From Candidatus Micrarchaeia archaeon (GTDB lineage Archaea; Micrarchaeota; Micrarchaeia; Anstonellales; Bilamarchaeaceae): a stretch of DNA of 43,502 nucleotides. The notes under the pieces are model-generated. The model ran no database searches. It had not been told where the DNA came from and worked only from the letters and a program-made list of their open reading frames with translations. Of the stretch, positions 8,878 through 43,502 are shown one piece after another. The position numbers were made by a program, and so were the translations under genes. Location: contig JBAZLI010000001.1 in assembly GCA_041650355.1 (NCBI GenBank), positions 1 to 43,502 of the forward strand, read 5' to 3'. Each line of letters begins with the position of its first letter. Position 1 is the first letter of the stretch.

Positions 8878-8950
8878 AAATCACACCTCATCCACGAACA
8901 TCATCCGTGCTTCCTTCGCGGTTTCCCGGCACGGATTATACTTTCTGTTT

Positions 8951-22071: not shown

Positions 22072-22395
22072 TCAGGAGAACCTCGTGTTGCAGGCCGGGC
22101 ATCGGAGCATGTAGTAATCCGCCCTATACCCGCATATCGGGCACACGTAGATTGTTTTCTTGGCGCGCGCGAGCTCGGCCGCGAAATCGTACTTGCACTT
22201 CACGCACCTTTCCACGTCCAGCTCGTTGAGTTCTTTGCATTTCGGGCATTTCTTCTTGAACATGCTCTTCACGTGCACGCCGCAGTGCGGGCAGCGCTCT
22301 ACATCTAAAGTTATTTCTTTTCCGCAATTCGGGCATTTGGCCTTCCAGCCCTTTCCGCCGGTTTCCTTGCCAGTTACAAGGTCCATCAAACCCAT
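22072..22395 (-). CDS. Triple zinc-ribbon protein
   Basis: 107 aa with three CxxC...CxxC pairs (CPNC/CPHC, CPKC/CVKC, CPIC/CPAC). It starts 11 nt after the stop of the giant gene. Confidence 0.7.
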   Translation of the reverse strand: MGLMDLVTGKETGGKGWKAKCPNCGKEITLDVERCPHCGVHVKSMFKKKCPKCKELNELDVERCVKCKYDFAAELARAKKTIYVCPICGYRADYYMLRCPACNTRFS

Positions 22396-28400: not shown

Positions 28401-30386
28401 TGGCGGAAAATAATCGAAATTTATTATCCTGTTTTTGTTTATCGTGGCGTCTTGGGAGTTGTTGAGCAGAATCCCAATGTCAACGCTGGAGATGTTGTTG
28501 AAGCTTACACCCAGGTTGGAGGAATCGGAGCCTGCGATCGCTATCCACGCGCGGTCGATGACATTGGAGGTTACTTCGCTCTGGGAAGAGAGGTTGAGGA
28601 GCACGCTTATGTTCGAGATGTTCATTATGGAGTTCGAGCGCACGTAGACTTTCGAGCGGAAGGCGCTGATGCCTGCTTTGCTCAGCCCCACCTCACTGCT
28701 GGAGATGGTGCTGGTTCCTGAATCCGTGAGGTTCACGGCTATTTCGCTGTTGTTGTAAAGCGCTGACGAATCCACCGTGAGCTGGGACTGCTCGGCGTAA
28801 ATCCCTACTACGCTCTTCGTTATGGTGCTTCCGTTTACCATGCTGCCCCCGGAATCCAGCAGAACTAGCGAATGCTGCGGAAAGACAGGGGAAAGCATGG
28901 ACATATGGTCGGTAACGGTTGTTCTCATCATTTTGAAGCCCGGGGAGTTGTTCACTAAAACCCCCAGGGAGCTGTGGTTCACCAGGGTGTCGTTAAGGTC
29001 GAAATCCGCGGAATCCTGTATGCGCACGTTTATTGCAGGCACGTTCGCAACCGTGGAGGATGAAAGCGAGGATTGCGGCGAATCAACAGCAACAAATCCC
29101 TCCGTGGAGCCGTTCAGCCACGCGCCGGAAACGCTGGTTTTTAGTGAATTGTTAAGCAAGATCGTATAGCAGATGCCCGGCCCTGTCGGCATCGGAATCC
29201 TGACTTTGGAAATTGCTCCTTCCTGGGAATCCGCCGAATATATGCCAGAGCTAAAAGGCTGAGTGCTGCAAGGCACCCCTGAGATATTGGTGTTGATTAC
29301 GAAAAACTTATTTGAAGATATGATTGAAAAGCCGAAATCCGCGGAGCTCGCATTTGAATCGGAAATTCCGCAATTTTCGCAACTGTACAAAAGGCCGAAC
29401 GCGGACGGCGCTTCCGTGTATTGCAGGTTAAAAATTTTGGAACCCGAGATATGGACATTCTCGGAATCTTCCGTAACAAAGCCGTAAGCGCTTTGGGAGA
29501 TGCTGCTTGCTGAAACCGAAACGCCTTTGGAGGATCGGATGTTCAGCCCTGAAAAAATATTGAGCGAGAGGTTGCAGGATGACATTGCAATTCCATCATA
29601 GTTAAGGACGTAAACTCCGGTTTCCTCATTGGAATAGAAGCTTGAGCGGGCTATTTCCGCGTCCGAGCCAGAACCTGACAGACGCAGGCCCTCCTTGTTT
29701 TCATAAAATTGTGAGTCGTATATTTTTAGGCTCGACATGCCGTTTATGTCTGCACCGGCAAAGGTGCTATGGAAGAACGATGAACGGGATATCGTAAGGC
29801 CGCTGAGGTCGCCAGAAAACGTCGAAAGGCCGTACCTGAAACCGGACACGCTGCAGTTCTCAACGGTGACCCCTGAGCCTCGGACAAATATGCCGTAGCC
29901 GCACGAGCCGGAGCAGGCAATTTGTTTGTTGTTGCAGTTCAATGTCAAATCAGTGGCGTTTATTTCAAGGCAGGTTCCGCTGTCTGCAGACAAACTGTTG
30001 GCCAGCGTGCACGTCCTTCCGCTGCTTGAAGATTCTATCTTTCCGCAGGAAGTGAGCGGAACGTCGAAGTGGTTGGAGCTGCTATAGCCCATTATATTCT
30101 GCCCTCCGGAATCGGTGTAATTGCACACCACCTCCCATTCGTGGCGGCACGGCCCTATATTGCTGTAGTTGAACGTGCAATTCTGGCTCACGTTGCACAC
30201 CTGATATGCAGATATCACCGTTCCGTCCAGGGTTAGGTTGCATGTAACGTTGGTGGCCCCTGGAAAATCCATGGGGGTCCAGTTGAACGCCACGTCAGCG
30301 CCCTGCGCAGGGCTGCCAGGGGTTGTGAATGTCCTGGCCACGTATGCCGAGTGGGAAAACGCGCAAAGCAGTATGAGCAAGAGCAA
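22407..30386 (-). CDS. Giant single-pass membrane protein: signal peptide, Cys-rich parallel beta-helix ectodomain, one TM, 1428-aa Cys-free cytoplasmic domain
   Basis: 2659-aa uninterrupted ORF with a TTG start and a hydrophobic leader. PbH1/NosD-like repeats span about aa 140-760. Further beta-rich Cys-containing modules run to aa ~1190. The TM is LCIPIFILFGLLMAALYYTG (nt 26694-26753). The tail begins Gly/Met/Lys-rich, continues as a long helical K/E/Q-rich domain and ends in a Pro/Gln-rich terminus. Confidence 0.85.
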   Translation of the reverse strand: MLLLILLCAFSHSAYVARTFTTPGSPAQGADVAFNWTPMDFPGATNVTCNLTLDGTVISAYQVCNVSQNCTFNYSNIGPCRHEWEVVCNYTDSGGQNIMGYSSSNHFDVPLTSCGKIESSSSGRTCTLANSLSADSGTCLEINATDLTLNCNNKQIACSGSCGYGIFVRGSGVTVENCSVSGFRYGLSTFSGDLSGLTISRSSFFHSTFAGADINGMSSLKIYDSQFYENKEGLRLSGSGSDAEIARSSFYSNEETGVYVLNYDGIAMSSCNLSLNIFSGLNIRSSKGVSVSASSISQSAYGFVTEDSENVHISGSKIFNLQYTEAPSAFGLLYSCENCGISDSNASSADFGFSIISSNKFFVINTNISGVPCSTQPFSSGIYSADSQEGAISKVRIPMPTGPGICYTILLNNSLKTSVSGAWLNGSTEGFVAVDSPQSSLSSSTVANVPAINVRIQDSADFDLNDTLVNHSSLGVLVNNSPGFKMMRTTVTDHMSMLSPVFPQHSLVLLDSGGSMVNGSTITKSVVGIYAEQSQLTVDSSALYNNSEIAVNLTDSGTSTISSSEVGLSKAGISAFRSKVYVRSNSIMNISNISVLLNLSSQSEVTSNVIDRAWIAIAGSDSSNLGVSFNNISSVDIGILLNNSQDATINKNRIINFDYFPPKYGNPEFEPENILAAGIFASYSPRLVVSRNTVMENFWDGAVQLFDCPDSDLWSNNFSMAGTCMSLFNCSHSSFYDNRFNDCRVFVDNESTDMAASITPSGGTNILGCGTKGGNAWTSSSSTGVSDTCENLDGDCFCDYPPSVAAGEYLNDSHPLAVHEGSDFTVRPDSMNGRALDARERYDRKEYVAATQEPNQLITFSILTKVPGNYACHLMPPLSGSDSLGVNETVGIGGISTARAEGCYPLVVNCSYSPAPTVSKLSKPAYFCVDRTVPTIEFGQRSQAKSRIYNPYDGETVNSSTFTLNLSASDNNRHTFISACVIEVWNQTSSELMGNMSFEPTNSGAFQYCSINVKLGNGEFRYRVFALDSAENYDGTGYRTVIVNGHPSGCDECENVNDFDPSTILLTTQSGANKIKAVLYFDNASTGTRQPVPGAPIAVWIRNSTDRYLTKIVTDGQGVAYLDYSGWKDARKEYSFIYCCFYEECGFEMCLNASGVDDAYRDANGIYSVDTIPTMPNQPEASMERHYLLPALKKIDISPDAQDLYAQLQQSLCIPIFILFGLLMAALYYTGRNPFGFLDLSPLRVGRHIRYSPRGMMTGFRVSTQTMAGVGTRVGSSAVKPMAGPTSGLGKTMMSVGKTMGRIASFGIGGDKSKSKDSAAASKQDAGAGKQAAGTQAKGPGFFVRFVKQTIKQESAPFRNIKNLVAPSAESKGVGLGSRLAMTLFGGDISAAGAKIAQGGPAKPVSKVQDSAASQLRVDPNMARQFGMGTGAGAGWIGMLGFLGMRGAALSSLAGIVYQSMDAARKKSVAYGDTTEIEKQLGAIGVKLSDKQRSELGNLGLKSNRSITLAGPRGTTYIASLAKGGKIRVQEQASFSRQIFRFITALTGFSSLMEMKDTVKAVRLVNSIDRDVNQKLIEAKQTPEKLNSEQLARIKAGEDPITHLEALQMRYNQTNKGGSGMVSDNVYRVAQELLNQRAYMQGLSFGRAFGSVFATTAVGSIFGTMLASSVANKIYNRSMNEAQAEKIMRDAKLIGKDGIADSEKIRDFLADPAVYAKKHGLYLGQVAQAFDVFSENFKKARQEATPVLNEIMLPELLIKPELRLESSVLNASLVRSKASKPLISIIKDIVAEKIPAQSELESKIATAKLNETEANFARISFSLMRQEPITIRQFEQLSVAQKALGIESPALDAVSSGLKKRVDEILTASPAEQSRIIFEQESRSFLQSRGISYQEFQKASEALVQQLVTAGQAKADYSYPNEGARSVIDGLVKSMSQQLDEKDSETVGRMMADAANHSISETRVNQKIVTTFVDLLAMGARLPKTQRTKFETAVFSAFFRTSLTKDEQTAIEQELKTQGFSKIEIGNRIEQIEDGMRTRSKEFFNTYDERIKENPQNLTGAIDQAMKQTKDEDSKLQAALYGLSHGLADSVLYSTQSAKELSKKLTEASGSQQYIVPLQKEPEQYLSQQLSVERHAEPDYTSANAHMAQRMWNYGDEKKDKAALQNYLSVEWLAENAPNMAAAMLKDEARDAARKYMEKHASDAHEETITYSVPHSAAARIEQKVNQSAQTTSLEMAVDIALDNSKPDEKSEVRIRNNGGILEFLVPQDAKGKAEWQNAEELKAENSGLIQSVLSAAGMPKTDLFAPKLAGVPTFGDILKQMLDPKSESAKPISISPQFHAQSYRYERDKLVVGPEVEIQYLKPEEPPIIYIGGEQYDLKNSSHRDALASAVNLNSRGQLPKPEALARTIVTENYTDKGEQSGDVPVRLEPEKITVFEGSRGRRLERDDAGDRFLLANLVKEAKTVKGAEPEPKPAVDVAILAERLKDRKLFNSAVEFVTAPETFTINLSSPAGETLAPVTVGKSGPVSNPESADYTRAGFNLVHGHKPSKEESAAIEQSAPVGALYKASAAYDSARLAYEYESEREKKRSYLAHMGIGSLDNEELFKQPASRMPDFEINMVNLVQPKSRPPQPPQAETPSAQPAASAKPTITQSPKGK
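28107..29969 (-). repeat. Right-handed parallel beta-helix (PbH1-type) repeat region within the giant protein
   Basis: Segments of ~22-25 aa recur with the pattern (N/S)xx(I/V)xxSx(I/F/V)xxNxxxG(I/V), for example ENCSVSGFRYGLS, ISRSSFFHSTFAGADI and IARSSFYSNEETGVYV. Confidence 0.7.
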
Positions 30387-30402: not shown

Positions 30403-33400
30403 TCACCCGGTCTTGCATTCTATAAGGTAATCCTTTATCGGGAGCTGGACGCCGCAGAACTCGCCGCTGTCTTTGTTGAGCCCGCAGTCCAGAGACTCAT
30501 TCCCGGATTTCGGGAAGCGCACAGGTGTCACGGTCATGCCCTCCCCGACGCTCTTGCTGTAAGTGTAATTGTAGATCTGGCTGGTCTGTGGGTCCACATA
30601 GCTCAGGCAGCATCTTTGCTCCTTGGGCATGCTCGCGATTATGTCCCCGTAGAGCTGGTCGAGCTCATTTATCTGGAACAGGGCGGTGCTGGTGCTGTCG
30701 TCCGGGTATGTGTAGGTGCAGCTGAGTTTCGCGTCGCCGTAGTTTGCGCAAGGCGTGCACGGCTCAACCGCGGTGTTGAACTGGCATCTGTAGCCGTCGT
30801 GGGAAGCTGCGCCCGCGGGAAGCGTGCATTCCACTCCGTTCTCGCAGGCCGGGTCGCACTGGCCGAATTGGATTTCAGTGTCCGTGCACTTGACGCACTT
30901 CGCCTCGTCGCTGGTGCTCGCGACCGTTGCTATCTCGTTTACCAGCGTCTTCCTCTTTATCGGATTGAGGTAGATGTTTATGGCTTTCTGGATTGCGCAG
31001 AACTTTTCATCCTTGAACGTGGGCGGCCTGCCGGAAGAGCCGGCCATGGGGGTTACGAGAGATTCGTTGTCGTTCCTGAACCATTTCTTGTAAAAGAGCG
31101 CGAACTGCCCGCTGTTCACCAAGTCGGTTTGGTTGCCCAGCAGGTATTTCATCGCACTTAGGGTATCGTTGTACGCTTCCCAGCCATTGGCACTGTCGTC
31201 TATAACGAAGTTGTACGGGAAGCTTGGCTTCCCGAAATTGGCGAGCATGTTCCTGCTAGTCTCTGTGGAGGCGTCCAGTATGGCCTTTTCCCTGTCCGCG
31301 CCAGCGGCATCGTTGGCCCTGAAATCGTACACTATGACGTCTACGTAATATCCGGCCGGGACGCTGGTTGCAGAGCAGGAGTACGGGCTGTTGCATCCGA
31401 GCGCCTTCGCGAGCTTGGTCACGTTCGCGTTTTGGGAATACACTGCTGCAAGGCAGTTCGGGCAGTTCCCCTGCTCCTTGAGCATGATGGAGCGGTTCCT
31501 GAGCACGAGCTGGTCCATGTCGTCCGTGCCTATTATGACTATGGATGCGCTGTTGCCTATCGCGCGGCCGAGGAAATGGTAGTAGCCGGTCCAGTTGCAG
31601 GTCATATGCTTAACGTTGTAGGACCACCATCCCAGTTCAACGGCCTGCTCTCCTTCAGTCCCTTCTGGCGGGTCCGCGTAAGAATCGCCCCCGGGCGAGC
31701 CGAACTCGCCCATGTCGTAATTGCTTTCTGCCCCTGACGCGGTTATTGGGGAGGGGCATTTGATTTTCTCGTCGTATTTGCGCGGGTTCCTGTTGGTGGC
31801 GCAGTCGGTTTCCTCATCCTCGAAGAAAGGAGATGCGTCAGGGACATAGTAGAAATAGTTCCCGAGAAGGATGTTCCTGATGGAGCTTTCCATGTCATCC
31901 ACATAGGGCTCTATGTCCTGGGCGCGTATGCGGCAGTTGTGGTAAGTCTCGTAGGTGCCTGACTGGGCTTCCGCATAACCCAGGGTTCCGTTCACGTACC
32001 AGACCACTGGTATAACTCCTGCTTTGTGGTAGTTGTCCACCCGGTTCCTGAGCAGTGCCAGGTTCTCCATGTAATCATTTACCTTCTTTCCGCAGAGCTC
32101 GCAGCCGCCCATGTCGTCCATCACTCCCACTGCTACTCCCTGCATGTCGTTGCACGTGGTCGCAGGGCAGTTGAAGACATAGGGGAGCGTCTGCCCTGTG
32201 GAAGGAATGACGCGCTGGTATTTCTTGAAATAGTAATCCAGGTCTATCCCAACCATGGTGGCGAGGGTGCATGAGTCGCACCAGCCGTATGTGTTGTCCA
32301 GCTTCAGGAAGCTGTCTATCGCGAGGCCGAAAACCCCATCATCGGGCTTGCACGCCCCTAAATCCGAGATGTTTATTTTCTGCCCGCCTTCGCCGGCCGC
32401 CACATTGTACCCGGGATGGCAGGAGCGGTAGAGGAACGTCTGGGTGAAATTGTCCTCGTTCATGTACGCTTCCCCTATCGCGTTGCCGTGTTCGCTCTTG
32501 TTCGTGAAAAACAAGATGGGGTCCGCGTCCTTTACCGTGCCGTCCGCGGAGGTGTACGTGGCGCGCTCGACGCCCCACGTGTCGTTCACCATGTAGGGCT
32601 CGCAGTAAACTGCGTTTCCAGGCCTGGCCCTCATTCCAACTTCGTAGCAGAGGCAGTTTTTTAGGCCGTTGCTGCTGTCTACGCAGAAGGAGCGCTCGTA
32701 GCCTGAATCTTCTTTCATGCACAGCCCGGAAAGGCAGTCCCCGGAACTGCTGCACTCGAAGTCCATCATTTCAGTGGAATCCATGCTGGAGGCATCCGCA
32801 AGATAGGCTTCGAGAAGGTTTTCCTTGTAGAACCTGTTGGCTGGCATCACGTAAGAGGTAGCGAACTGACCTGTGCCCTCGGTGAACGTGGTCATCACGT
32901 ACTGGCCGCTGGGCGCAGGTGCGAAATCCAGGTTTCCATCCTGGCTGCATACTGAGCGGTTGTTGAGCGTGCACGGGTCGAAGCGCCTCGGGTCTCCGGA
33001 AAAGTCCAGGCGGAAGCCGTCGTACGAGTAGGAGAAGGTGCCTGACTGGGCGCCACTGGCACTGCACTGCCCCGGAAGCTGGATTGCACCGCCTGTTGTC
33101 GAGGCTGAACCAAGGCTGCAGGCGCCGCCGCTGAAGCCAGCAGTGAGCGTCAGCGAACCCGGCTCGAAATGACCTGGAAGGACTTCCAATTCGTGCCATT
33201 CGCCGTGCTGGAAGTCCCCGGAAGTAGTGGACGGCCCCTTGCCGCCGATAAACGAGGGGTTGCTTGCCTGGCAGTTGTCGTGCCACCATTTTTCATCCAG
33301 CGGCGTGTCGCCGGTGTTGAACGCGGTATCCGTAACGAGGAGATGCGCCCCGTCAGCTTTGTAATCGACCATTATGTATATCAGTTCATCTGTGCAGAGC

Positions 33401-34281
33401 TGGCCGTTCCCGCTTCCGCTCACGTGCGTCTGTGTGTAGGATGCGCCCGCGCCAGCACTAAGGTTCAGATAGTTCATGTACCTGTCTCTTATGCTGCACA
33501 TAGCATCCTCGGCTGCCCCCGGCAGGTCAGGCACGAAGCCGCACCACCTGTCGCTTAGAGGGAAATAGTACCTTCCCTCTTCAAAATCGGAAATGCTTTC
33601 CCCGATTCCGAACCTGTATGAGTTTACGAATATCCCGCTCCCCTTCTTGAGTTTCTTCATGGTCTTGTTGTCTAAAGTGTAGAAGTTGCACATCGCGTTA
33701 TATAGATTAATAGTGTACGAAGAGCCGAGGTTCTGGTACATGGGGTTCTTCGCGGGCTCTGGAAGGAAGGAGTGCTGGGGCGAGTATTTTATGTTCCCGC
33801 ACAGCATGGTCTTGCAATCCGTATCAATGCCCATCTCGCTGCGCTCGGTGCAAATCGGAACCGAGTAATTGTAACTCTGGTCCGGCGCGCTCTCGTTCAC
33901 CGCGTTTATGAAGCAATAGCCGATGTTGTTGCACGGGTGCGAAGTGTTCGAGGGGGAATAGTTGCTGCAGTCCAGCACGCTGTATCCTGAAGTGGTGTAT
34001 TTGATGTATATTGTTTCGTTGCGCCCAGGGGTGGAATTCGCGAGCGTGCAGAACCGCGTCGTGCATTTCAGCCCGTTCGAGAGCGTGTTCCCGTTGCACA
34101 ATTCCTCAGACCCTGAGGAATCAGGAGGGTCGTCAGGGCCTGGCTGTGTGTAGAGGTTGCACGTGCCCTGGAGCGCGTCCGCGAGCTTGCAGCACGGGCC
34201 GTTCATGTTCGGCGTGAAACAGCCCAGGAGCAGGAGCAGGGCGAAAGCCGAAACTGCGAGCGCAATCCTTCCCATGGTCAT
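30403..34281 (-). CDS. Large Cys-rich secreted protein with lipobox-like signal
   Basis: ATG 34281 overlaps the upstream stop (ATGA). The N-terminus MTMGRIALAVSAFALLLLLGC looks like a signal peptide with a lipobox-like Cys. The protein is ~1292 aa with about 60 Cys by manual count, many N-x-S/T sequons and no other TM. The 80 upstream ORF codons were rejected. Confidence 0.8.
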   Translation of the reverse strand: MTMGRIALAVSAFALLLLLGCFTPNMNGPCCKLADALQGTCNLYTQPGPDDPPDSSGSEELCNGNTLSNGLKCTTRFCTLANSTPGRNETIYIKYTTSGYSVLDCSNYSPSNTSHPCNNIGYCFINAVNESAPDQSYNYSVPICTERSEMGIDTDCKTMLCGNIKYSPQHSFLPEPAKNPMYQNLGSSYTINLYNAMCNFYTLDNKTMKKLKKGSGIFVNSYRFGIGESISDFEEGRYYFPLSDRWCGFVPDLPGAAEDAMCSIRDRYMNYLNLSAGAGASYTQTHVSGSGNGQLCTDELIYIMVDYKADGAHLLVTDTAFNTGDTPLDEKWWHDNCQASNPSFIGGKGPSTTSGDFQHGEWHELEVLPGHFEPGSLTLTAGFSGGACSLGSASTTGGAIQLPGQCSASGAQSGTFSYSYDGFRLDFSGDPRRFDPCTLNNRSVCSQDGNLDFAPAPSGQYVMTTFTEGTGQFATSYVMPANRFYKENLLEAYLADASSMDSTEMMDFECSSSGDCLSGLCMKEDSGYERSFCVDSSNGLKNCLCYEVGMRARPGNAVYCEPYMVNDTWGVERATYTSADGTVKDADPILFFTNKSEHGNAIGEAYMNEDNFTQTFLYRSCHPGYNVAAGEGGQKINISDLGACKPDDGVFGLAIDSFLKLDNTYGWCDSCTLATMVGIDLDYYFKKYQRVIPSTGQTLPYVFNCPATTCNDMQGVAVGVMDDMGGCELCGKKVNDYMENLALLRNRVDNYHKAGVIPVVWYVNGTLGYAEAQSGTYETYHNCRIRAQDIEPYVDDMESSIRNILLGNYFYYVPDASPFFEDEETDCATNRNPRKYDEKIKCPSPITASGAESNYDMGEFGSPGGDSYADPPEGTEGEQAVELGWWSYNVKHMTCNWTGYYHFLGRAIGNSASIVIIGTDDMDQLVLRNRSIMLKEQGNCPNCLAAVYSQNANVTKLAKALGCNSPYSCSATSVPAGYYVDVIVYDFRANDAAGADREKAILDASTETSRNMLANFGKPSFPYNFVIDDSANGWEAYNDTLSAMKYLLGNQTDLVNSGQFALFYKKWFRNDNESLVTPMAGSSGRPPTFKDEKFCAIQKAINIYLNPIKRKTLVNEIATVASTSDEAKCVKCTDTEIQFGQCDPACENGVECTLPAGAASHDGYRCQFNTAVEPCTPCANYGDAKLSCTYTYPDDSTSTALFQINELDQLYGDIIASMPKEQRCCLSYVDPQTSQIYNYTYSKSVGEGMTVTPVRFPKSGNESLDCGLNKDSGEFCGVQLPIKDYLIECKTG

Positions 34282-35354
34282 ATCACTCTCGATGCAAGCC
34301 TGTAAATCTCCTGGCTCTCCCCTCCGAACAACGTCGTTAGATAGCGCACGAATATCAGCGTTATGCTTAAAATCACTATTGGCTGGAGTATGAGGCCGTA
34401 ATAGAGCTTGGACAGTTCCGCGGCGCCCTCGTTTATGCTCACTGCACCGAAAAAGTCCGAGCCGGTCTGGGTCTGGGGCGCCATGGTAATTATGGATACC
34501 GCGCCGCTGAAGGTGGGCCACGGGAAAGTGATTGCCGAGGGGTCGGAAAGGTCCACGTACATGCCCGGCACCTTGATGAAGCTCGGGTCGGTTATCACGA
34601 ACAGGAACGGGAAGATTATGTAGAAGCCCAGGGCTAGCGCTATGAAGAACGCGCCTATGCCCCGCGTGAACGGTATCGCGCGCAGCACTATCCCTATGGG
34701 GAGGAACATTGTGAGCATGTTCGCTGAGATGTAATGTATCGCTCCTATATAGGCGTTCAGCGCTATCAGGAGGAGCACGGATATGTGCGCCAGCATGCGG
34801 TAGCTTTCAATCTGGGTATAAAGCTGCGAGATTTGGGTCTGCCAGATGTAGGCGCCCTGCATGTATATCGGTATCCCGAAAAGGCCCCACATGAGCCCGA
34901 ATTTCTTGAACGGGTCGCGGGCTGAGAAATATATGCGCTCGTAGAGCATGGTCATGTAGGTCGCTTTCTCGGTGAGCTTGCATTCCACGAAGTCGAACGG
35001 ATTGACTCCGCTGGAAAGCTCTATCTTGCCGTACATGTCGCAGCTCACGCTGGCTCCGCTGAAATAGAGCAGCATGACCTGGAAAATGCCGTTCAGTATC
35101 ACGAGCACCATCACCGCGAGGAGCGCGGTGAAGAGCGCGTCGTAGAGGTGGCTCTTCGTGCTCCGCTTGAGCTCCTCCACGTTGAACGCGTAGGCCAGCA
35201 TGTACACGAGCCCGTAGAAGAAAATCACCACCATCATGGACAGCACTACCATGGTGCCCCAGCCGCCCATCCAGTCCACGAACTCGGTGCCTGAAAACCC
35301 GGTTATCACACCGCCAAGGCCGGTTTCTGGACTAGGGTAATAAGACATAATCAC
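34278..35354 (-). CDS. Polytopic membrane protein, paralog F of the cluster family
   Basis: 358 aa and multi-TM. It has the family signature LPIGIVLRAIPFTRGIGAFFIALALGFYIIFP and the C-terminal tail GGESQEIYRLASRVI. GTG 35354 overlaps the upstream stop; an alternative ATG is at 35348. Confidence 0.8.
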   Translation of the reverse strand: MIMSYYPSPETGLGGVITGFSGTEFVDWMGGWGTMVVLSMMVVIFFYGLVYMLAYAFNVEELKRSTKSHLYDALFTALLAVMVLVILNGIFQVMLLYFSGASVSCDMYGKIELSSGVNPFDFVECKLTEKATYMTMLYERIYFSARDPFKKFGLMWGLFGIPIYMQGAYIWQTQISQLYTQIESYRMLAHISVLLLIALNAYIGAIHYISANMLTMFLPIGIVLRAIPFTRGIGAFFIALALGFYIIFPFLFVITDPSFIKVPGMYVDLSDPSAITFPWPTFSGAVSIITMAPQTQTGSDFFGAVSINEGAAELSKLYYGLILQPIVILSITLIFVRYLTTLFGGESQEIYRLASRVI

Positions 35355-38300
35355 ACCATTTGGGTAAGCCTGCTCAAATCTATTTCCTCTCCCATCAGGC
35401 GCCCCACATACGCTGCCGCTGCAGCGGCTCCGAGAAGCGCCATCGTTGGGAGAAGCACAGAGTAGAAGAAAGCTTTCATCGAGATTCCTGCAGCGAACGC
35501 CATGTCGCCTGGCTGCACTTCAGGGCCGTTGTAGCCGCCTCCGCTGAATGCGTTCGCGGAAACCTTGAGGCTGCTCTCCAGGTGCGGGGCAGGTATATTG
35601 ATTAGGTCAGGGTCCGTGGAGCCCACGGTCGCGTAGAGCACTGCAAGGATTGACGGATACACTACGTAGAGCGCGAAGAGCACTGCCAGAAGTATCGAGC
35701 CGAAGCCGCGCATGAACGGGAGCGAGCGCGTCACTATGGCTATGGGGAACATGAACAGGAACAGCCCGCTTCCCACATACTTGAGGAAGAATATGTGCAT
35801 GAACGCCGAGAAGAATGAGAGCGTCGCGGAATTCATCAGGAGCATGAAGCCCGAAGACATGTAGGAAGCGCCGGCCTGGGGGGACGTGGACGCTCCTGTG
35901 CCGCCTATGGAAAGGAAGCACCAGAGCGGGCATTTCCATGTCGAGTAAACCTCTTCTATATTTATCGCGCCCAAGTAGTACCTGTTCTCCAGTATGGCGA
36001 CGTGCGAGAGCTTCGCGGCCCTGAGCAGGTACGCCTCCGCGCCTTCATAAACTGACGCAGAGGAGGTGGAAGCGGCGCCCACTATGGAGGCCATGTCAGC
36101 AACCGTGAACAGGCAGAACGAGTTGAGCAGCACTATCATTATGAATATGAACGCTGCGGACATCACGAGCTGCACTGCCTCGGTCCTTGACCATACTGAA
36201 AGTTTGGGGTCGCTCAGCGCCTGGGAAGCAGCGAACACCAGCCCTATAATCATCGCGGCAAGTATTCCTGCTAAAAGCGAAACCGGGTAGATGTTCTCGT
36301 TGAGCACAGTGTAGAAGTCCTGGGAGCAGAAGAAGCCCGAGCCGCCTGGCTGGCCTGAGCTGCTGACCTCGAAAACCACTTCCCGCTGCATCATGCCGCC
36401 TGCAGCGCTGAACGCGTAAACGTGCAGGGTGTGCGTTCCATCGGAAGGGTCCAGCGTAATCGGCCCGCCGCATTCCACGTCTGTTTCAGGGCCGCTGTTG
36501 AGCTTCCACGAGCAGCGCACCGCCCCGCTTACATCGTAGTCCACGTGCACCGGCGTTGAAGTTACGTTCTGTCCTGAGACCGGGCTGTTTATTGTGAGCG
36601 CGAGGGGAGCCGCAGTGTCCACAACGAAAGAGACGCTCGCGCTTGCTGTGTTGCCTGCGCTATCCCTTGCTGAAACGGTCACTGTGTGGGGAAGCGAGGA
36701 AAGCGAGCCGAGCGTAATGTTCATGCAGCTGGGAAGAGGAATTGGCCCCCCTGAATCGAGCGCATAGCTGCACGAGGCGTTCTCGGAAATCGAATATTGG
36801 AGCGGTATTGAAGATTGATAATACGTCTTGCCCTCAGGGCTGGCTATGCTGATTGCCGGCGGAACGCTGTCCACCGTGAAATTGACCGTAACGTTCACTA
36901 TGGTGGTGCCGTTGGTCGCGTAAACCGCGAGCGCGTGCCTGCCTTCTGCGAGGGACGCGAGGGTGGCGTTCCAGCAATTCGGAAGGTTAACGCTCGCTCC
37001 CCCGTCCAGGGTGTACCAGCAGGAGCTCGCGAGCTTCACAGTGTAGTTCAGCCTCGCTGCAGTGACGTTGTAAACTTTCTGGACAGGGCTCTGCACCTGG
37101 AGCGAGAGTGCGTTGCTGGTTATCTGGAATGTAACGTTCACTATTGCTGAATGGCAGTTTTGGTCCCTTGCATGCACCTTTACGGTGTGGTTGCCCACAC
37201 CCAAGCCAGTTGGGGTAGCATTCGAGCAGTTAGCCAAACTTTTGTAAGGGCCGTTGTCCACGGCGTATTCGCATATATTGAATCCCGCGGCAGTGTAGTT
37301 GAGCTCGATGGGGGTAAACGGAGGATATACACCGGCTTCGAGCGGGCTCTGTATGGTGAGGTTCGGGTCAGGATACGTGTTTATGCCTGCGAGCCACATG
37401 GAATACGGGGTTGGTGATGAATAAGAAGTTGCGCCTGCCGCCACGTAGCTGGTGTCGGACAGCGGAATCACCGCGGAGATGCTGTTCACGCCCCTGAACG
37501 TCTCGTTAGCGGTCATGTTCCCTTCCGAATCCAGTTTTGAAATCATAGCCCCGGTCCCGCTGCAGCCTGCTCCTTGCCCGCCTAGCACATAGCCGCCGTC
37601 CGGGATCTGCGTGATTGAGTTGGCCCGCGTGGCAGAAGAAAATTCATATGCTTTCTCCCAAACCACGTCGCCGTTGCCGGCTGTTTTTACAATGTATATT
37701 CCTAGATACTTGTCGCCGGCGAGCACGAATCCGCCTGGAATTGAAATCAGGGAATTGCCGTATTCCCACCCGTCGCTTTCGCCATAGGTCCTGTTCCAAA
37801 GGTGCGTGCCGGCAAGGTCGGTCCTTATGAGCCAGAAGTCAGAATTGAAGGAACCTGGAGGAGTGATGTCCCCGAGCACGGCGTAGCCGTCGGGAAGCGC
37901 GACAATTTCCCTGGCCAGGTCGCTTTGGCTCCCTCCGAACGTTTTGCTCCAGTCCACCGCGTGGCTGCTTTCGTCAACTTTGAAGAGCAAAACGTCACTG
38001 TAGAATGCCGGGGCCGTGTATCCAACAGCCACGTAGCCGCCCGGGCCGGCCACGACTGAAATTGCTGCCTGTCCCCCTGCGCCGCCGTAAGTGACGTTCC
38101 ACAAGTGGTTGCCGTTCCGGTCAAGAGCGATTATCCACGCGTCACTGCCCACGGCGCCGAAAGATTCCGTGGAGCCGGCCACCACGTAGCCGCCGGGAGT
38201 TTCTATTATGCCGTTTCCCTGGTCTATTCCTGAGCCGCCGAACGTCTTCTGCCAAACGAGGTTGCCGCTCAGGTCTGTCTTTACCACGTAAATGTCCGAC

Positions 38301-38506
38301 GGCGCGCTGTAGTCGCTCGGGCTGGTGCTTCCGGCCAGCAGGTAAGCGTCTGATGTTTTTATCATGGTTGAAAGCGAAGATGCACCTGAACCCGGGAACG
38401 TCCTGTTCCACTCCACGCCGAAAATGGCGAACGAGGATGAGGAGAGCAGGGCCGCGGCTAGCAGGAGCACGAATGCCTTTCCGCCTGCAAACTCCGTTGT
38501 CATCAT
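35351..38506 (-). CDS. Paralog E: signal peptide, 7-blade beta-propeller-like repeats, 4 Ig-like repeats and the family membrane module
   Basis: ATG 38506 overlaps the upstream stop (ATGA). The protein is 1051 aa. The C-terminal ~315 aa carry the signature FPIAIVTRSLPFMRGFGSILLAVLFALYVVYP and the tail GEEIDLSRLTQMV. The upstream 191 ORF codons overlap paralog D and were rejected. Confidence 0.85.
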   Translation of the reverse strand: MMTTEFAGGKAFVLLLAAALLSSSSFAIFGVEWNRTFPGSGASSLSTMIKTSDAYLLAGSTSPSDYSAPSDIYVVKTDLSGNLVWQKTFGGSGIDQGNGIIETPGGYVVAGSTESFGAVGSDAWIIALDRNGNHLWNVTYGGAGGQAAISVVAGPGGYVAVGYTAPAFYSDVLLFKVDESSHAVDWSKTFGGSQSDLAREIVALPDGYAVLGDITPPGSFNSDFWLIRTDLAGTHLWNRTYGESDGWEYGNSLISIPGGFVLAGDKYLGIYIVKTAGNGDVVWEKAYEFSSATRANSITQIPDGGYVLGGQGAGCSGTGAMISKLDSEGNMTANETFRGVNSISAVIPLSDTSYVAAGATSYSSPTPYSMWLAGINTYPDPNLTIQSPLEAGVYPPFTPIELNYTAAGFNICEYAVDNGPYKSLANCSNATPTGLGVGNHTVKVHARDQNCHSAIVNVTFQITSNALSLQVQSPVQKVYNVTAARLNYTVKLASSCWYTLDGGASVNLPNCWNATLASLAEGRHALAVYATNGTTIVNVTVNFTVDSVPPAISIASPEGKTYYQSSIPLQYSISENASCSYALDSGGPIPLPSCMNITLGSLSSLPHTVTVSARDSAGNTASASVSFVVDTAAPLALTINSPVSGQNVTSTPVHVDYDVSGAVRCSWKLNSGPETDVECGGPITLDPSDGTHTLHVYAFSAAGGMMQREVVFEVSSSGQPGGSGFFCSQDFYTVLNENIYPVSLLAGILAAMIIGLVFAASQALSDPKLSVWSRTEAVQLVMSAAFIFIMIVLLNSFCLFTVADMASIVGAASTSSASVYEGAEAYLLRAAKLSHVAILENRYYLGAINIEEVYSTWKCPLWCFLSIGGTGASTSPQAGASYMSSGFMLLMNSATLSFFSAFMHIFFLKYVGSGLFLFMFPIAIVTRSLPFMRGFGSILLAVLFALYVVYPSILAVLYATVGSTDPDLINIPAPHLESSLKVSANAFSGGGYNGPEVQPGDMAFAAGISMKAFFYSVLLPTMALLGAAAAAAYVGRLMGEEIDLSRLTQMV
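36365..37366 (-). repeat. Four tandem ~83-aa Ig-like repeats with a conserved Cys pair
   Basis: Each unit opens with L(T/S)(I/V)xSP, contains C(E/W/S)(Y/W)x(L/V)(D/N)xG...(N/S/E)C, and ends with V(T/N/S/V)F. Confidence 0.75.
37382..38419 (-). repeat. Seven ~50-aa beta-propeller-type (SBBP-like) repeats
   Basis: The pattern W(N/Q/S/E)(R/K/V)T(F/Y)GG...GGY(V/A)(V/L)AG recurs at WNRTF, WQKTF, WNVTY, WSKTF, WNRTY and WEKAY, plus a degenerate seventh (ANETF). Confidence 0.7.
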
Positions 38507-39435
38507 ATCAGCCTGCCCAAAGCGTGAACGTCCACCTCTGCCCCCGCGATGGAGGAAAGGTACCTTATGGAAATGACCGCGACCGCGAGCGAAACCACCA
38601 CGCACAGCGTGGCGTCCATTATCGCGTAGTACAGGAGCGGGCGTATTATGGCGTCGCGGTTTTGTATCGCGCCCTGGAACGTCGCTATGGCCGCGTTCTC
38701 GTTGCCTGTCCCCTGGATCGCGTAGTGATCGCACGATTGGACGTTTATGGGCGAGGGGTCCGAGACTGGAACGCTCGGGTCCGCAATTATGCCGTGAAGG
38801 TAGCTGTAAGTTATGGGCATCACGACGTAAAACGCGAGCCCCACCGCCATCAGGAGCCCGCCTGCGCCCCGCGTGTACTTGAACGTGCGCATGAAGAGGC
38901 CGAGCGGGAAGAAGAGCGTGAATATGTACGTCTCGGCGAAATCCATCAGGAACATCATGCCCTGGAGCTCTGCGAGCGCGGTCGCGGTGAGCTGGAAGCC
39001 CAGTGAAAGCGCCGGGCCAAGCATCCTGAATCCCGAGCAGGAGCTGACGCCGAAGCCCGCGGCAGAGAAGCTGCACCATATGGACTTGCTCCCTTCCTTC
39101 CCGAGTTCCATCGCGGCTTTTCCGAGTATGCCGTTTATATCGGTTATCTTGTCTATCGTGGCGCCCACGTCCGCAGTGGCGCTTATGTGCGCGCCCTGCA
39201 CGATGGGCTGCACCACTGCTATGAATCCGGCCACCATGACCGCGGTGATCATCACCTGGAACAGTTCCTCTTTTGCAAGGAATTTCAATTCGTTGGATTC
39301 AATGCCATAGCCTACTGCGAACAATATGCCGAGCGCAGCGACCGACGCGAGTATCGCCACTATGCTGAGGTCCTGCCACGCAGACTGGGCAAAGGCAAGC
39401 GGAACCAGCAGGAGCGCGAGCATCAGTTTTTTCAT
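38503..39435 (-). CDS. Polytopic membrane protein, paralog D
   Basis: 310 aa with the signal peptide MKKLMLALLLVPLAFA. The signature is FPLGLFMRTFKYTRGAGGLLMAVGLAFYVVMP and the tail is GAEVDVHALGRLI. The ATG abuts the upstream TGA. Confidence 0.85.
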   Translation of the reverse strand: MKKLMLALLLVPLAFAQSAWQDLSIVAILASVAALGILFAVGYGIESNELKFLAKEELFQVMITAVMVAGFIAVVQPIVQGAHISATADVGATIDKITDINGILGKAAMELGKEGSKSIWCSFSAAGFGVSSCSGFRMLGPALSLGFQLTATALAELQGMMFLMDFAETYIFTLFFPLGLFMRTFKYTRGAGGLLMAVGLAFYVVMPITYSYLHGIIADPSVPVSDPSPINVQSCDHYAIQGTGNENAAIATFQGAIQNRDAIIRPLLYYAIMDATLCVVVSLAVAVISIRYLSSIAGAEVDVHALGRLI

Positions 39436-41673
39436 TCACAGCACCTTCGCGTAGCCCGGAATTTCGAAGTCCCCTCCGAATATGGGCGAGAATCCCCTGA
39501 TGAACATGAGCGTGACCGCGATGTTGATGAGCGGCAGCAAATAGGCCGGAAGGAGCATCCGGCTCACGTTCTTTATGTCCTCCCTCCCGAACATGCCTTC
39601 GCTGGATTTTTTCGCGAATTCGGCAGCGGTGAGGAGCGCGGGCTTGAGGAACGTCCCGGTAGTGCAGTCTTCGGCGCAGCTGAGCGCCACGTAGGGCTTG
39701 AAGAAGCAGTAGTCCTTGGGAACGTCCAGGCAGGAATTGCACCTCGCGCTAGGCTTGGAGCAGTTGCGCCCGTAGCACTGGCACGTGTGCGTGTTGTTGT
39801 TCCAGAACCTGTCGCTCGGGTGGTTGAGGCACGTACCCGCGGTGTTCGAGGAGCACTCGTAGTGCCGCACCACCTGCAGGTCGGTCCCAGTCACCACTTC
39901 CTCGTTGTCAGGGCTTTCGTCCACGCTCGGCTGCTGGGAAACCGTGACGTTGCCTCCGCTCGTGGTCGCGTAAAAATTCGCGCAGTCGCTCACCCCTTCC
40001 ACGAAAATGCAGCACTCCGGACCCGAGCACTCACAGTCCGGCATCTCGGGAACTATGTAGGCGCAGGATTCCGCAGGGTCCATGTCGGCCTTGCAGTTCA
40101 TCGTTGCCTGCGAGTAATCGTTCGTGTAGGTTGCCCCGGTCGTAGGGTCGGTAAGGCTGGATTGGGTGCAGCTTTCTGGCCTTCCGGAAATGTCGCTCAC
40201 CACCTGGCCCTGCGCGTCGAGCGTCTGTCTCAGAAGCGCAATCCGGCAGTTGAACGGCGCGGAAACCGGGCTGGAATAGCTGAAACCCGGCTCGAAGCAG
40301 GACGTGCAGTCCGCGTTGAGCGGCGCAATCACCTTGCAGTCGTCGGGGCAGATAGGGGTATTGTCTGCATTAAGGCAAACGTCCGAAGACCCGCCCGCTA
40401 TTGCCACTTCCCGGACTATTTTGCACCCACGGGGCATTTCCATGCACGCGAGCTCGACTTTCGCGTTGGAGCATTCATAGATTGAGTAGGGATATGGAAG
40501 TTCCCTGCAATAGTCCGGGCAATAGTAGTCCCCGAACTCGTTGTTGTGCCCGTTCCGGGCATGGGTGGAATTTATTTCAATGGAGATGTTCTCGCACGAG
40601 CCTGCGTTCCCGTACGAAAAGCGCGAGCCGTTCTCCAATCCTTCCAGGATGGCGCGGCGCTCAGATTCGGATATTGTGCTCCCGGAAGGCTTGTTATCCT
40701 CTATTATCTCGGTTATATTGTAATATCCGGTACTTTGGTCCGAAATGGAATACGCAATCGGCGCCTCCATCCCGCATTCCTTCGGGCAGTCCGGGTTCGG
40801 CATCGCGAAAAGCCGGTCGCCGTAAACGGCAACATTGAGCGTTATCATGTTCCACAGGTACATCATCGGGAAGACGAACATTATGCCCAGCGCGACAGCC
40901 ATGAGCATGCCGCCGGCGCGCCTGGTGAGGAAGAAGCCGCGCCCCACTATCCCTATCAGCAGGAGCACCGGCCCGACCAAGTAAGCAACCTTGTTCACGA
41001 AGAACTGCTGCACCCCGAGCGCGTATATTATCGAGCCGAACATCTCTATTTCCTGGTTGTAGCGCTCCACGTCCAGTATGAGGAAGCCGTTGTTCGCCCA
41101 GCTTATGTAGCCCCAGAGGCAGGGCGGAATCAGGAGCGTGCCGCAGGAAAACGTCTGCCTTTCCGATGCTGTGGAGCCTGCGCTCACGCTCGCGGTGAAA
41201 GCTGAACGCGAGCTTTCCTGGGAAAGGTTGATGAGGCCGTCTAAGTAGACATTGGAGACCTTTATCAGGCAGAATTCAGAAGAGTCGCACTGCACCGGGC
41301 TTCCGGGCGACCTGTTCACCTCGTCCGCGACCGCCATGTCCACGAAAACCAGGCATCCTATTGTGGCTAGCACTATCACCACAGTCACTATCGTCTGGGC
41401 CCACTCCACGTTCGCCCATGCCTTGAGGTCGGGAAGGTTGAGCGGGTCTGCAATCATGCGCGCGAACCCCACGAGGAACACCATTATCAGCGCTAATGTT
41501 ACCGAAAGCTCCTTCCACTGGTTGAGAATCCCGGTGGAGTAGAAGGGCGAGCCTGCTTCCACAGCGCCCAGGCCCTGCTCGGTCTCCTTCACGACTTCGC
41601 TCACGTTGGATGCAGCGGCAAACGCGGAGCCTGCCAGAACGGCAAACAGCAGGAGCAATAGTATCCTTCTCAT
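39436..41673 (-). CDS. Paralog C: family membrane module split by a ~400-aa Cys-rich extracytoplasmic insertion
   Basis: ATG 41673 overlaps the upstream stop (ATGA). The protein is 745 aa. The signature is LIGIVGRGFFLTRRAGGMLMAVALGIMFVFP. An insertion at aa ~290-690 holds ~32 Cys, including CPKEC, CPDYC and CPDDC. A final TM follows, then the tail GGDFEIPGYAKVL. Confidence 0.85.
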   Translation of the reverse strand: MRRILLLLLFAVLAGSAFAAASNVSEVVKETEQGLGAVEAGSPFYSTGILNQWKELSVTLALIMVFLVGFARMIADPLNLPDLKAWANVEWAQTIVTVVIVLATIGCLVFVDMAVADEVNRSPGSPVQCDSSEFCLIKVSNVYLDGLINLSQESSRSAFTASVSAGSTASERQTFSCGTLLIPPCLWGYISWANNGFLILDVERYNQEIEMFGSIIYALGVQQFFVNKVAYLVGPVLLLIGIVGRGFFLTRRAGGMLMAVALGIMFVFPMMYLWNMITLNVAVYGDRLFAMPNPDCPKECGMEAPIAYSISDQSTGYYNITEIIEDNKPSGSTISESERRAILEGLENGSRFSYGNAGSCENISIEINSTHARNGHNNEFGDYYCPDYCRELPYPYSIYECSNAKVELACMEMPRGCKIVREVAIAGGSSDVCLNADNTPICPDDCKVIAPLNADCTSCFEPGFSYSSPVSAPFNCRIALLRQTLDAQGQVVSDISGRPESCTQSSLTDPTTGATYTNDYSQATMNCKADMDPAESCAYIVPEMPDCECSGPECCIFVEGVSDCANFYATTSGGNVTVSQQPSVDESPDNEEVVTGTDLQVVRHYECSSNTAGTCLNHPSDRFWNNNTHTCQCYGRNCSKPSARCNSCLDVPKDYCFFKPYVALSCAEDCTTGTFLKPALLTAAEFAKKSSEGMFGREDIKNVSRMLLPAYLLPLINIAVTLMFIRGFSPIFGGDFEIPGYAKVL

Positions 41674-42749
41674 CCGAGCACCTTCAGCGCCTTGTTCACA
41701 GAGGTCATGAACGCGATGAATATTATTATGGTTATGTTGGGCAGCAGGAACGCCTGGGGGTAGAGCCTTGCGACAGCGAGCAGGTTCGCAGGGGAGTCGC
41801 ACGCGAGCGCCTGGTTCGGGCCGCCCGTGGTTTCTGCTTCCCCGCCCCAGATGGAAACCGGGTCTGCTATCACGTCTTTGTACCTGTCGCAGTCCTGCGG
41901 GGTGAACGTGTACTGGTACATTATCGCGTTCAGCGCCACGAACACCGGTATTATCAGGTAAATCCCCACGGAGAACGCGATGAGCATGTTCCCTATCTGG
42001 CGTGTGGGCGCGAAGAAGCGGAGCACGAACGCGCCGGGCAGGAGAAGCCCGAGGATTGCGGAGGTGTTCACACCCTCCGGGCCCTCCGTCTTGTAGCCCA
42101 CGAAGTAGCGCATGAATATGTCCTGCGTGTATATGCTCACGTAGGCGGGTATCACGAACATGTTGTTCACGTTGTCTATGAACGCGGCTTGGGAGCGCAT
42201 GTACGCCTTGGGCGCGAACGTGGTCCCGGAAAGAAGGCCGTAATAGCTCACGTAACCCGAGGCCTTGAGCTGCAGGTCTATGTTGGCTTTCGTGTATGTG
42301 TTGATTATCTCCTTCGCGTCGGATTCCATCAGGCGCATGTAGCACACGGAAACGGACTGCACGTCCGTGCTTTCCCCGTAGCACGGGTCGTTGAGCGAGC
42401 CTTTGTTTATGTTCTCGTAGGCGAAGTTGAACGCGCTCCCGACGAGCGCGCAGCTCACGCTCATTATCATTCCGAACAGGACGAGTATCGCTATTGAAAC
42501 GCCCAGATGGAAAAATTCATCCTTCACGAGCAGGATGTACTCCTGCCTGTTCAGGGCGTAGGCAACCATGTATATGAGCGCGAGCGCCGCGATGGTTGTG
42601 AATATTATGAGCGCAATCAAGCCCCCTGCACCGTCGTCTATCATCCTGCGCACTGAATCGGCTGCGCACTGACCTGCGCCTACTTCAAGGGTTGGGGCTG
42701 CGCTGGCGAGGGCGATGAAAAGCAGGAGCAGGAGCGCGGATTTTCTCAT
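41670..42749 (-). CDS. Polytopic membrane protein, paralog B
   Basis: ATG 42749 overlaps the upstream stop (ATGA). The protein is 359 aa with the signal peptide MRKSALLLLLFIALASA. The signature is LPGAFVLRFFAPTRQIGNMLIAFSVGIYLIIP. The tail has diverged (NKALKVLG). Confidence 0.85.
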   Translation of the reverse strand: MRKSALLLLLFIALASAAPTLEVGAGQCAADSVRRMIDDGAGGLIALIIFTTIAALALIYMVAYALNRQEYILLVKDEFFHLGVSIAILVLFGMIMSVSCALVGSAFNFAYENINKGSLNDPCYGESTDVQSVSVCYMRLMESDAKEIINTYTKANIDLQLKASGYVSYYGLLSGTTFAPKAYMRSQAAFIDNVNNMFVIPAYVSIYTQDIFMRYFVGYKTEGPEGVNTSAILGLLLPGAFVLRFFAPTRQIGNMLIAFSVGIYLIIPVFVALNAIMYQYTFTPQDCDRYKDVIADPVSIWGGEAETTGGPNQALACDSPANLLAVARLYPQAFLLPNITIIIFIAFMTSVNKALKVLG

Positions 42750-43502
42750 ATCAATCTCTCCAGGCCCGCTATGGCCAGCTCCCCGCCAAGGGCTGATGAA
42801 AGGCTCCTTGCAACGAGGATTGTGAATCCGCCCACGAACACCGCTTCCATTATGGGGAGCGCGGACGCGCTGCTCACCGGTATTATCAAATGGTTCATTA
42901 CTATGTCGTGTATCGCGCCCGCGTCTGCCCCTATCGCGCTCTGCATCCGCTGGGAAGCCGAAACCATCGCAGCCGAGGATACGAGCATGAGCGCCATCTG
43001 GGTGAAATTGTAGAACTGGTACGAGATTCCCCACCAGCACCACCCTGCTATGGGCGCGAGGCAATGCCACAGGCCGGTCAGCAGACAGCACGCGAGGCAG
43101 AGCGGGATGCATATTATTGCCCACCAGCCCCATTCGCTCAAAGATGTGAACACTCTTATGAAATCGTTGGTGCACAAGCCCACGAGGAAAGATGGGAGGT
43201 GGAGGGAAACTTTCCCCAGGTCCTCGGCGGTTATCATCGAGTGCTGAACATCCACGTTGTCGTGAATTTCCGCAGCTAGCGCCATCGCGAACGGGTACGC
43301 GAATATTCCTGCTATCGCGAGGCCGAGCAGGGTCCCGCCTATCTTCCTGGTGAAAGGTATGAAACGGAGCGCGAAGCCTATGGGCAGTATCGCGGTGATG
43401 GATATGCTGAACAGGAAGCGCATGAAAAGAATCATCGCCTCGTAGACCAGGATTCCTGTGGAGATGTTGGACGCGAGCACAGAAAGGGACTGCATGAGCC
43501 CG
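42746..43502 (-). CDS. Polytopic membrane protein, paralog A (5'-truncated by the window edge)
   Basis: The frame stays open to the window end. The signature is LPIGFALRFIPFTRKIGGTLLGLAIAGIFAYP and the tail is GGELAIAGLERLI. The other paralogs have 230+ aa before the signature, so the true start lies beyond 43502. Confidence 0.8.
   Translation of the reverse strand, partial: GLMQSLSVLASNISTGILVYEAMILFMRFLFSISITAILPIGFALRFIPFTRKIGGTLLGLAIAGIFAYPFAMALAAEIHDNVDVQHSMITAEDLGKVSLHLPSFLVGLCTNDFIRVFTSLSEWGWWAIICIPLCLACCLLTGLWHCLAPIAGWCWWGISYQFYNFTQMALMLVSSAAMVSASQRMQSAIGADAGAIHDIVMNHLIIPVSSASALPIMEAVFVGGFTILVARSLSSALGGELAIAGLERLI

Follow-up and report, generated by a model that had tools for sequence, protein, structure and literature searches.

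The 43,502-nucleotide stretch of DNA analysed here (the window; contig JBAZLI010000001.1 of assembly GCA_041650355.1, from a Candidatus Micrarchaeia archaeon) carries six consecutive genes, A to F, which occupy positions 34278-43502 on the minus strand and encode six ancient paralogs of an unannotated polytopic membrane protein family. Successive genes overlap by 4 nt or directly abut one another. Gene A (42746-43501) is represented by its C-terminal 251 amino acids (aa), as its 5' end lies past the window edge; on the parent contig it encodes 403 aa, and its C-terminal tail is GGELAIAGLERLI. The product of B (41670-42749; 359 aa) has a signal-peptide-like N-terminus and ends in NKALKVLG. C (39436-41673; 745 aa) is an "extended" form and D (38503-39435; 310 aa) a minimal core form. 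E (35351-38506; 1051 aa) starts with a signal peptide and then has an ectodomain of about 710 aa at its N-terminal end, ahead of the family core, which spans residues 742-1051, and F (34278-35354) encodes 358 aa, or 356 aa in the public gene call.

An initial annotation of the sequence had proposed six paralogs at this position, and locating the genes and comparing their products pairwise by BLAST confirmed this; the shared block and the C-terminal tails it quoted are present exactly as written. With E-values relative to a database of the six sequences, the best pairs were D-F (5e-13), E-F (2.5e-9), D-E (1.3e-8) and A-F (1.5e-6), followed by the weaker pairs C-F (1.2e-5) and B-F (5.9e-5). This likeness is not a matter of chance or composition, because each of the six proteins forms its own orthologous group in other genomes, exemplified by A, which is matched by the orthologs L002_A, L003_A and L005_A. 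Long open reading frames in other frames or on the plus strand overlap A to F within 35360-43279, e.g. at 39187-40485 (plus strand, 432 aa) and 41610-42497 (plus strand, 295 aa). They are rich in Arg, His and Val, as is typical of non-coding frames in GC-rich DNA, and were not treated as genes.

A loop of the form R-x4-[T/M]-R-x2-G is common to all six paralogs. In F it is located at 34653-34700 (minus strand, like the others) and reads PIGIVLRAIPFTRGIG; counted from the start codons, it is found at 43337-43384 in A, 41991-42038 in B, 40912-40959 in C, 38860-38907 in D and 35699-35746 in E. R225, R231, G234 and P249 (F numbering) are invariant in the alignment of A to F, and two arginines, one glycine and two prolines are invariant across 133 distant homologs. 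The longer motif originally put forward, P-x-G-x3-R-x4-T-R-x2-G, thus stands in its Arg/Arg/Gly core but not in its strict wording, as the first P is replaced by L in C, the G by A in E and the T by M in E. A GGE-type C-terminal tail had been reported for five of the six paralogs, and this was borne out. The tail is acidic and amphipathic, and is absent from B alone, as it is from all orthologs of B.

We infer from the sequences that members of the family have the N-terminus outside, five transmembrane (TM) helices and the C-terminus inside, with the TM1-TM2 loop, the R-x5-R loop and the C-terminal tail in the cytoplasm. B, C, D and E start with signal-peptide-like segments. Between TM4 and TM5, C carries an insert of 433 aa with 32 Cys and 8 N-glycosylation sequons, which is retained in the C orthologs and is predicted to be extracellular. 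The ectodomain of E precedes the first TM helix and holds 20 N-glycosylation sequons, beta-propeller-like repeats and immunoglobulin (Ig)-like domains. If both of these large domains are extracellular, the five-TM, N-out, C-in arrangement is the sole consistent model, and it supports the earlier suggestion that the loop with the two arginines is short and cytoplasmic. A subunit would then run from an outside N-terminus through TM1 and TM2, a hairpin with a basic loop on its cytoplasmic side, an ectodomain whose Cys pair is conserved in the TM2-TM3 loop of the family, TM3, the invariant cytoplasmic loop, TM4 and a variable, often glycosylated or expanded ecto-loop to TM5 and a short cytoplasmic tail of acidic/amphipathic character. 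AlphaFold2 (AF2) models of F (pLDDT 76, pTM 0.70; all-helical with two small hairpins) and of a single-copy relative (pLDDT 87, pTM 0.80) have helix patterns that agree with this topology. The extracellular decorations of A to F appear to evolve fast. The ectodomain of E (36300-38506 in the window, minus strand) is lineage-specific; the E ortholog L005_E of a related metagenome-assembled genome (MAG; L005:8950-9948) is just 332 aa long.

The family had been described as new-looking, which the searches support. A to F have no match in Pfam, NCBIfam, PHROG or the PDB sequences, and every homolog is annotated as a hypothetical protein. A search of the PDB sequences with two family profiles returned nothing, or spurious matches to ABC transmembrane domains at E ~2e-3, and the HMM, PDB and fold searches together gave no significant match to a different known family. 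Homologs outside the source genome are numerous. An exhaustive hidden Markov model (HMM) search of 1.84 billion representatives, each standing for a cluster at 50% identity, detected 3,049 proteins at E<=1e-3, of which 2,316 also pass E<=1e-10. A scan of one genome per GTDB species found 79 loci, those with names being labelled Micrarchaeota, Micrarchaeia, Bilamarchaeaceae, Anstonellaceae and Burarchaeum; three are titled "Candidatus ainarchaeum", which is probably Iainarchaeum of the phylum Iainarchaeota. By the searches made, the family is so far found only in Micrarchaeota and close DPANN relatives. The genome scan was built from F orthologs and is biased to F-like motifs, so absence of the family elsewhere is not proven. 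Searches of the literature on Micrarchaeota and DPANN archaea turned up no earlier description of the family or cluster; a cryo-electron tomography (cryo-ET) study of ARM-1 assigned nanotubes to the host and named no Micrarchaeota genes.

The six genes behave as one conserved unit. On three syntenic contigs each of the six positions forms its own reciprocal-best orthologous group with a position-specific tail, and the complete order ABCDEF is found in 26 loci. Of the 57 arrays that lie wholly inside their contigs, 35 contain exactly six genes, nine contain one and none contains more than six; the few with two to five family genes probably reflect missed gene calls. Second, more divergent six-gene sets, in the same or in other genomes, are collinear with A to F by per-position HMMs. 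That six paralogs of ancient divergence have stayed in the same order throughout a phylum would be the signature of an obligate hetero-oligomer.

Evidence for what the family may do comes from its other loci, which were sorted into types by clustering the neighbours of all loci. The window cluster belongs to type 1. In 10 sister loci (types 2 and 3, with L087) the family is encoded together with a VirB2-like pilin and a VirB4-like ATPase. The seven loci of type 3 (L062, L071, L073, L074, L082, L083 and L087), one of them on a contig of 1.05 Mb, have a gene of ~125 aa followed by one family gene, a 2-TM protein, an ATPase of 375-460 aa and, farther downstream, a second ATPase of ~735 aa. They are found on contigs labelled Micrarchaeales/Micrarchaeaceae. 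In type 2 (L056, L059, L067 and partly L053), two or three small genes precede the six-gene set, which is followed by two copies of the 2-TM protein and an ATPase. The six-gene sets of type 2b are flanked by housekeeping genes, e.g. AspRS, RuBisCO and L7Ae. In two Bilamarchaeaceae MAGs, the gene for the RuBisCO large subunit lies directly downstream of second-type six-gene sets (L077:10530-11996 and L079:10536-11948).

Each small protein of the sister loci has a signal peptide and a pair of hydrophobic helices with a basic loop between them. PF18895 (T4SS_pilin) is matched by 10 of 15 (best 1.7e-4) and PF04956 (TrbC/VirB2) by 5 of 15 (best 1.3e-4), and the best PDB match of a profile made from them is the R388 VirB2 pilin TrwL (E = 0.044). 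The ATPases match DUF87/HerA, AAA_10, the TraG P-loop and TrwB_AAD_bind, and one of them aligns along almost its full length with the C-terminal domain of VirB4, 4AG5 (1.8e-8). The VirB4/HerA-like ATPase at L059:14647-17790 is split by an intein that contains a LAGLIDADG homing endonuclease (Intein_splicing 1.7e-20, LAGLIDADG_3 8.7e-24). Directly upstream of the VirB4-like ATPase there is always the 2-TM protein (~240-275 aa; e.g. L083:1822-2544, L067:11515-13155 and L087:11052-11786), which has two N-terminal TM helices and a coiled, charged domain and no Pfam match. It is duplicated in type-2 loci, and may be a VirB3-like partner or one resembling the VirB4 N-terminal domain. No relaxase was found among the annotated flanking genes of the sister loci.

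Two further observations tie the family to the pilins. In five six-gene sets the second gene encodes a fusion of a signal peptide, two tandem pilin domains (AAYAIGQIFGAETRA; E ~1e-12 each) and the family core (L075:4242-5771, L068:9071-10612, L077:4183-5748, L079:4248-5777 and L076:5174-6721). Furthermore, hhalign of the pilin profile against the TM1-loop-TM2 hairpin of the family gave scores of 32.6 and 27.8 (E = 2.6e-4 and 1.6e-3) for two family alignments, against 12-16 for reversed profiles and at most 15.5 for 20 column-shuffled ones; the signal is weak in absolute terms (probability 16-43%). A relation between the N-terminal hairpin and the pilin has also been reported for VirB2/VirB6 and for CedA1/CedA (PMC9905601).

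Within the window, A to F share an operon with the genes that follow them on the minus strand, first among them two for large extracellular proteins. G (30403-34281), which overlaps the stop codon of F by 4 nt, encodes a Cys-rich protein of 1,292 aa whose N-terminal signal, MTMGRIALAV..LLLGC, resembles a lipobox. In at least 25 loci G comes after the six-gene set. Its product has no match in Pfam, NCBIfam, PHROG or the PDB and no detectable domain, and may be a lipid-anchored extracellular partner of the complex. H (22407-30380) encodes 2,657 aa with N-terminal right-handed beta-helix/NosD repeats and a TM segment near residue 1140; its C-terminal ~1,500 aa match nothing in Pfam or the PDB. 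Pfam detected no P-loop domain in H, and no Walker-A motif was seen in its tail by eye. Farther downstream are I (22072-22395, minus strand), a double zinc-ribbon protein of 107 aa, and J (21465-22034, minus strand), a protein of 189 aa with a weak GNAT match. Both are conserved downstream of the cluster in 10 loci; the membership of J in the system is uncertain.

On the 65-kb parent contig, A is preceded by a divergent PadR regulator, a kinase and ScpB. The PadR-family gene is divergently transcribed directly upstream of A in at least 8-9 loci (e.g. L086:1018-1341, past the window end, and L002:3155-3481), and its product may regulate the operon. The remainder of the window holds archaeal housekeeping genes, e.g. 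those for aTrm56, a TFIIE-like factor, a Na+/H+ exchanger and a MacB-type ABC system. The latter (6088-9745, minus strand) comprises a MacB/FtsX-type permease (6088-7311) and an ABC ATPase (8951-9745), and between them is a gene for a secreted protein of 485 aa (7420-8877) with CARDB/NPCBM_assoc-like Ig folds. It looks like a separate surface/export module.

The gene order of the sister loci, the pilin fusions and the pilin-like hairpin lead us to propose that the family serves as a VirB6-like platform or pore in the membrane, within a chromosomal apparatus that descends from a type IV secretion system (T4SS), with A to F as its hetero-oligomeric host-contact core. We regard this proposal as evenly balanced between being right and wrong. 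The family would take the place of the polytopic VirB6/CedA/TedA component. The fixed number of six, the fixed order and the position-specific tails suggest that one copy of each of A to F would enter a hetero-oligomeric ring or stalk base, for which C, E, G and H would supply host-binding ectodomains. The invariant cytoplasmic loop and the tails may dock a cytoplasmic partner, possibly a VirB4-like ATPase encoded elsewhere, and the resulting surface machine would bind a host cell and move material (DNA, protein or lipid) across the contact. The window locus would either rely on pilin and ATPase genes at other places in the genome or do without them. A broader version can be put forward only tentatively, in which a T4SS-derived nanomachine, with a hetero-hexameric core of six VirB6-analogous subunits that diverged long ago, is fixed in the chromosome across the phylum Micrarchaeota and perhaps in other DPANN archaea; in loci like that of the window, this core would be coupled to giant lipoprotein and beta-helix adhesins. 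The fold would then either have diverged too far from VirB6 for recognition or have arisen independently from the pilin hairpin.

Several points weigh against a VirB6-like role. No pilin or VirB4-like gene adjoins the cluster in the window or on the parent contig, nor in the other type-1 loci, and most six-gene sets (types 1 and 2b) are located among housekeeping genes without an ATPase. All pilin assignments in the sister loci are below the Pfam gathering thresholds, and hetero-oligomerisation and the roles of G and H are read from gene order alone. The solved VirB6 and DotA assemblies are pentamers, not hexamers. Finally, homology to VirB6/TrbL, at which the initial annotation had hinted, found no support. 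With hmmscan at E<=1 there was no PF04610 match for the six window proteins or for three type-3 members, and hhalign against a TrwI/VirB6 profile (39 TrwI homologs seeded from R388, which represent one VirB6 subfamily, the TrwI-like one) gave probabilities of 0.1-0.4%, with reversed-sequence controls as high or higher. A Foldseek search of the PDB with the two AF2 models returned nothing below E = 0.18, no T4SS protein in the top 50 and generic helical bundles as the only matches; Foldseek, however, performs poorly on membrane proteins with long helices, and the solved TrwI structure is an unusual pentamer that lies largely outside the membrane.

The family homologs from two large searches all carry no precomputed Pfam assignment, and the TrwI relatives all carry PF04610. 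The core of the family has no invariant or near-invariant Trp, W32 being conserved in F orthologs only, whereas the VirB6 alignment has an invariant W199. The top local hhalign alignment placed the family motif on the VirB6 segment "GPLFI..WQPT.R" with identical spacing. Because the reversed controls scored equally or higher, this alignment is not counted as evidence, and the F-x-x-T-R-like loop that the initial annotation had named for VirB6/TrbL, although it aligns there without gaps, does not do so significantly. The ungapped match of LPLGIILRSFYPTRKL to GPLFILALIWQPTHRF, with the same P-x9-PT spacing, was no better than the reversed controls and was rejected. Membership of the family in PF04610 is thus not shown. 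What survives of the VirB6/TrbL analogy is the likeness in role, by way of the flanking VirB2-like pilins and VirB4-like ATPases, the fusions and the pilin-like hairpin. A relation to the platform proteins of type II secretion systems or type IV pili (GspF/PilC/FlaJ, T2SSF) was also considered and rejected, as there was no Pfam match and the neighbouring ATPases belong to the HerA/VirB4 clade, not to PilB/FlaI.

The rather unlikely but most serious rival is a scaffold of the envelope that works by itself. The six proteins would then be a hetero-oligomeric anchor that holds G, H and the C and E ectodomains at the surface, where these giant proteins would act in adhesion or in the manner of an S-layer, and nothing would be transferred. 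The T4SS-like neighbours found elsewhere would in that case reflect a shared ancestor and not current function. The lack of an ATPase or pilin in or beside the cluster in the window, on the parent contig and in ~26 syntenic loci fits such a scaffold, as do the partners specific to the locus type of the window, which are large extracellular proteins. However, every locus type retains the invariant cytoplasmic loop and the tail, a sign that a partner in the cytoplasm is conserved too, and the six-gene sets are collinear with sets that stand between pilins and an ATPase. Moreover, T4SS genes can be scattered in a genome, as they are in Rickettsia (PMC2653234).

The family could also be a channel or permease for the uptake of nutrients or lipids, e.g. 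a hetero-hexameric conduit like the six-paralog Mce systems, with a mechanism unrelated to T4SS. DPANN archaea are not known to synthesise lipids and nucleotides, the polytopic subunits have hydrophobic helices long enough to exceed one membrane thickness in the AF2 models, and six paralogs would fit a hetero-hexamer. We consider this improbable, given that no similarity to a transporter family or fold was found beyond the spurious ABC matches mentioned above, that the consistent neighbours, where there are any, are a pilin and a VirB4/HerA-like ATPase, and that pilin fusions exist. An origin of the cluster as part of an integrated conjugative or mobile element, which the T4SS-like gene content of the sister loci and a transposase and PIN toxins near one type-3 locus might bring to mind, was rejected as very improbable. 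The synteny with housekeeping genes (PadR, ScpB, Trm56, AspRS, RuBisCO) is conserved across divergent genomes, the GC content is uniform across the window, which contains no tRNA gene, no integrase or relaxase occurs among the annotated flanking genes, and contigs that carry the family reach lengths of up to 1.05 Mb.

For DPANN archaea at large, the means of attaching to a host and of obtaining DNA, lipids and metabolites from it are still being sought, and in Micrarchaeota no molecular machine is assigned to these tasks. A family of ~3,000 unannotated clusters tied to VirB2-like pilins and VirB4-like ATPases offers testable candidates for the contact apparatus. If the VirB6-like role proposed above is true, T4SS-derived systems in archaea reach past Ced/Ted and plasmids. 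On the broader and more tentative version, the six proteins would belong to the long-sought host-contact and transfer apparatus of these episymbionts, an archaeal counterpart of the T4SS that is essential for the epibiotic growth of Patescibacteria. The six would also be a second, independent case, after Rickettsiales, of massive paralogy of a polytopic T4SS component in a reduced, host-dependent genome. The order Micrarchaeales, whose name is among the labels of the type-3 contigs, includes cultivated strains, so cryo-ET, proteomics and pilus purification look feasible there.

Compared with VirB6/TrbL proteins such as TrwI of R388, the family is alike in size (~300-350 aa), in having five hydrophobic helices, two before and three after a large extracytoplasmic loop, and in its predicted N-out/C-in orientation, which is that of the five-TM-segment model of Agrobacterium tumefaciens VirB6 (PMC2653234). 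It adjoins a VirB2-like pilin and a VirB4-like ATPase in the sister loci, and its N-terminal hairpin resembles the cognate pilin. "Extended" forms with large hydrophilic inserts occur in both; those of VirB6 carry large hydrophilic domains (PMC12857230). Unlike VirB6, the family lacks the conserved essential Trp as well as any HMM, profile-profile or Foldseek similarity, has an invariant R-x5-R-x2-G loop and an acidic C-terminal tail of its own, and consists of six fixed paralogs, whereas the solved VirB6 is a homopentamer.

The type-3 loci resemble the Ced and Ted systems (PMC9905601) in that they are a minimal chromosomal set of a VirB2-like pilin, a polytopic protein and a VirB4/HerA-like ATPase, a triad that is found in the type-3 loci but not in the window cluster. 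As in TedC, the type-3 pilin has a cleavable signal peptide, and the N-terminus of the channel protein is related to the pilin. The differences are that the family occurs in DPANN archaea and not in Thermoproteota, has five TM helices in place of the six to seven of CedA/TedA, is multiplied six-fold and is tied to giant surface proteins.

Rickettsia has five tandem, enlarged, ~80% divergent copies of VirB6, and its vir genes are located in scattered islets (PMC2653234). The likeness of the window cluster to the Rickettsiales Rvh system is thus one of tandem, divergent and partly enlarged polytopic paralogs in an organism with a reduced genome that depends on a host, where the remaining T4SS genes can sit elsewhere in the genome. 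The five Rickettsiales copies belong to PF04610 and have undergone losses, whereas the archaeal six are kept in a fixed order across the phylum and are unrecognisable as PF04610. Patescibacteria, with a near-universal T4SS (PMC12102498), and Nanohaloarchaeota, in which giant proteins are coupled to VirB4-like ATPases (PMC10266531), are likewise ultra-small episymbionts. Their chromosomal T4SS-like genes lack a relaxase, have been proposed or shown to serve host interaction, and are neighbours of giant membrane-anchored surface proteins. The components of the Patescibacteria (candidate phyla radiation, CPR), unlike A to F, are detectable by standard VirB6 or PrgH profiles. The nanohaloarchaeal SPEARE proteins have a layout similar to that of H, but carry an ATPase domain. 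A T4SS-like system in which an unrecognised polytopic family has been multiplied into a fixed six would be a new arrangement among these.

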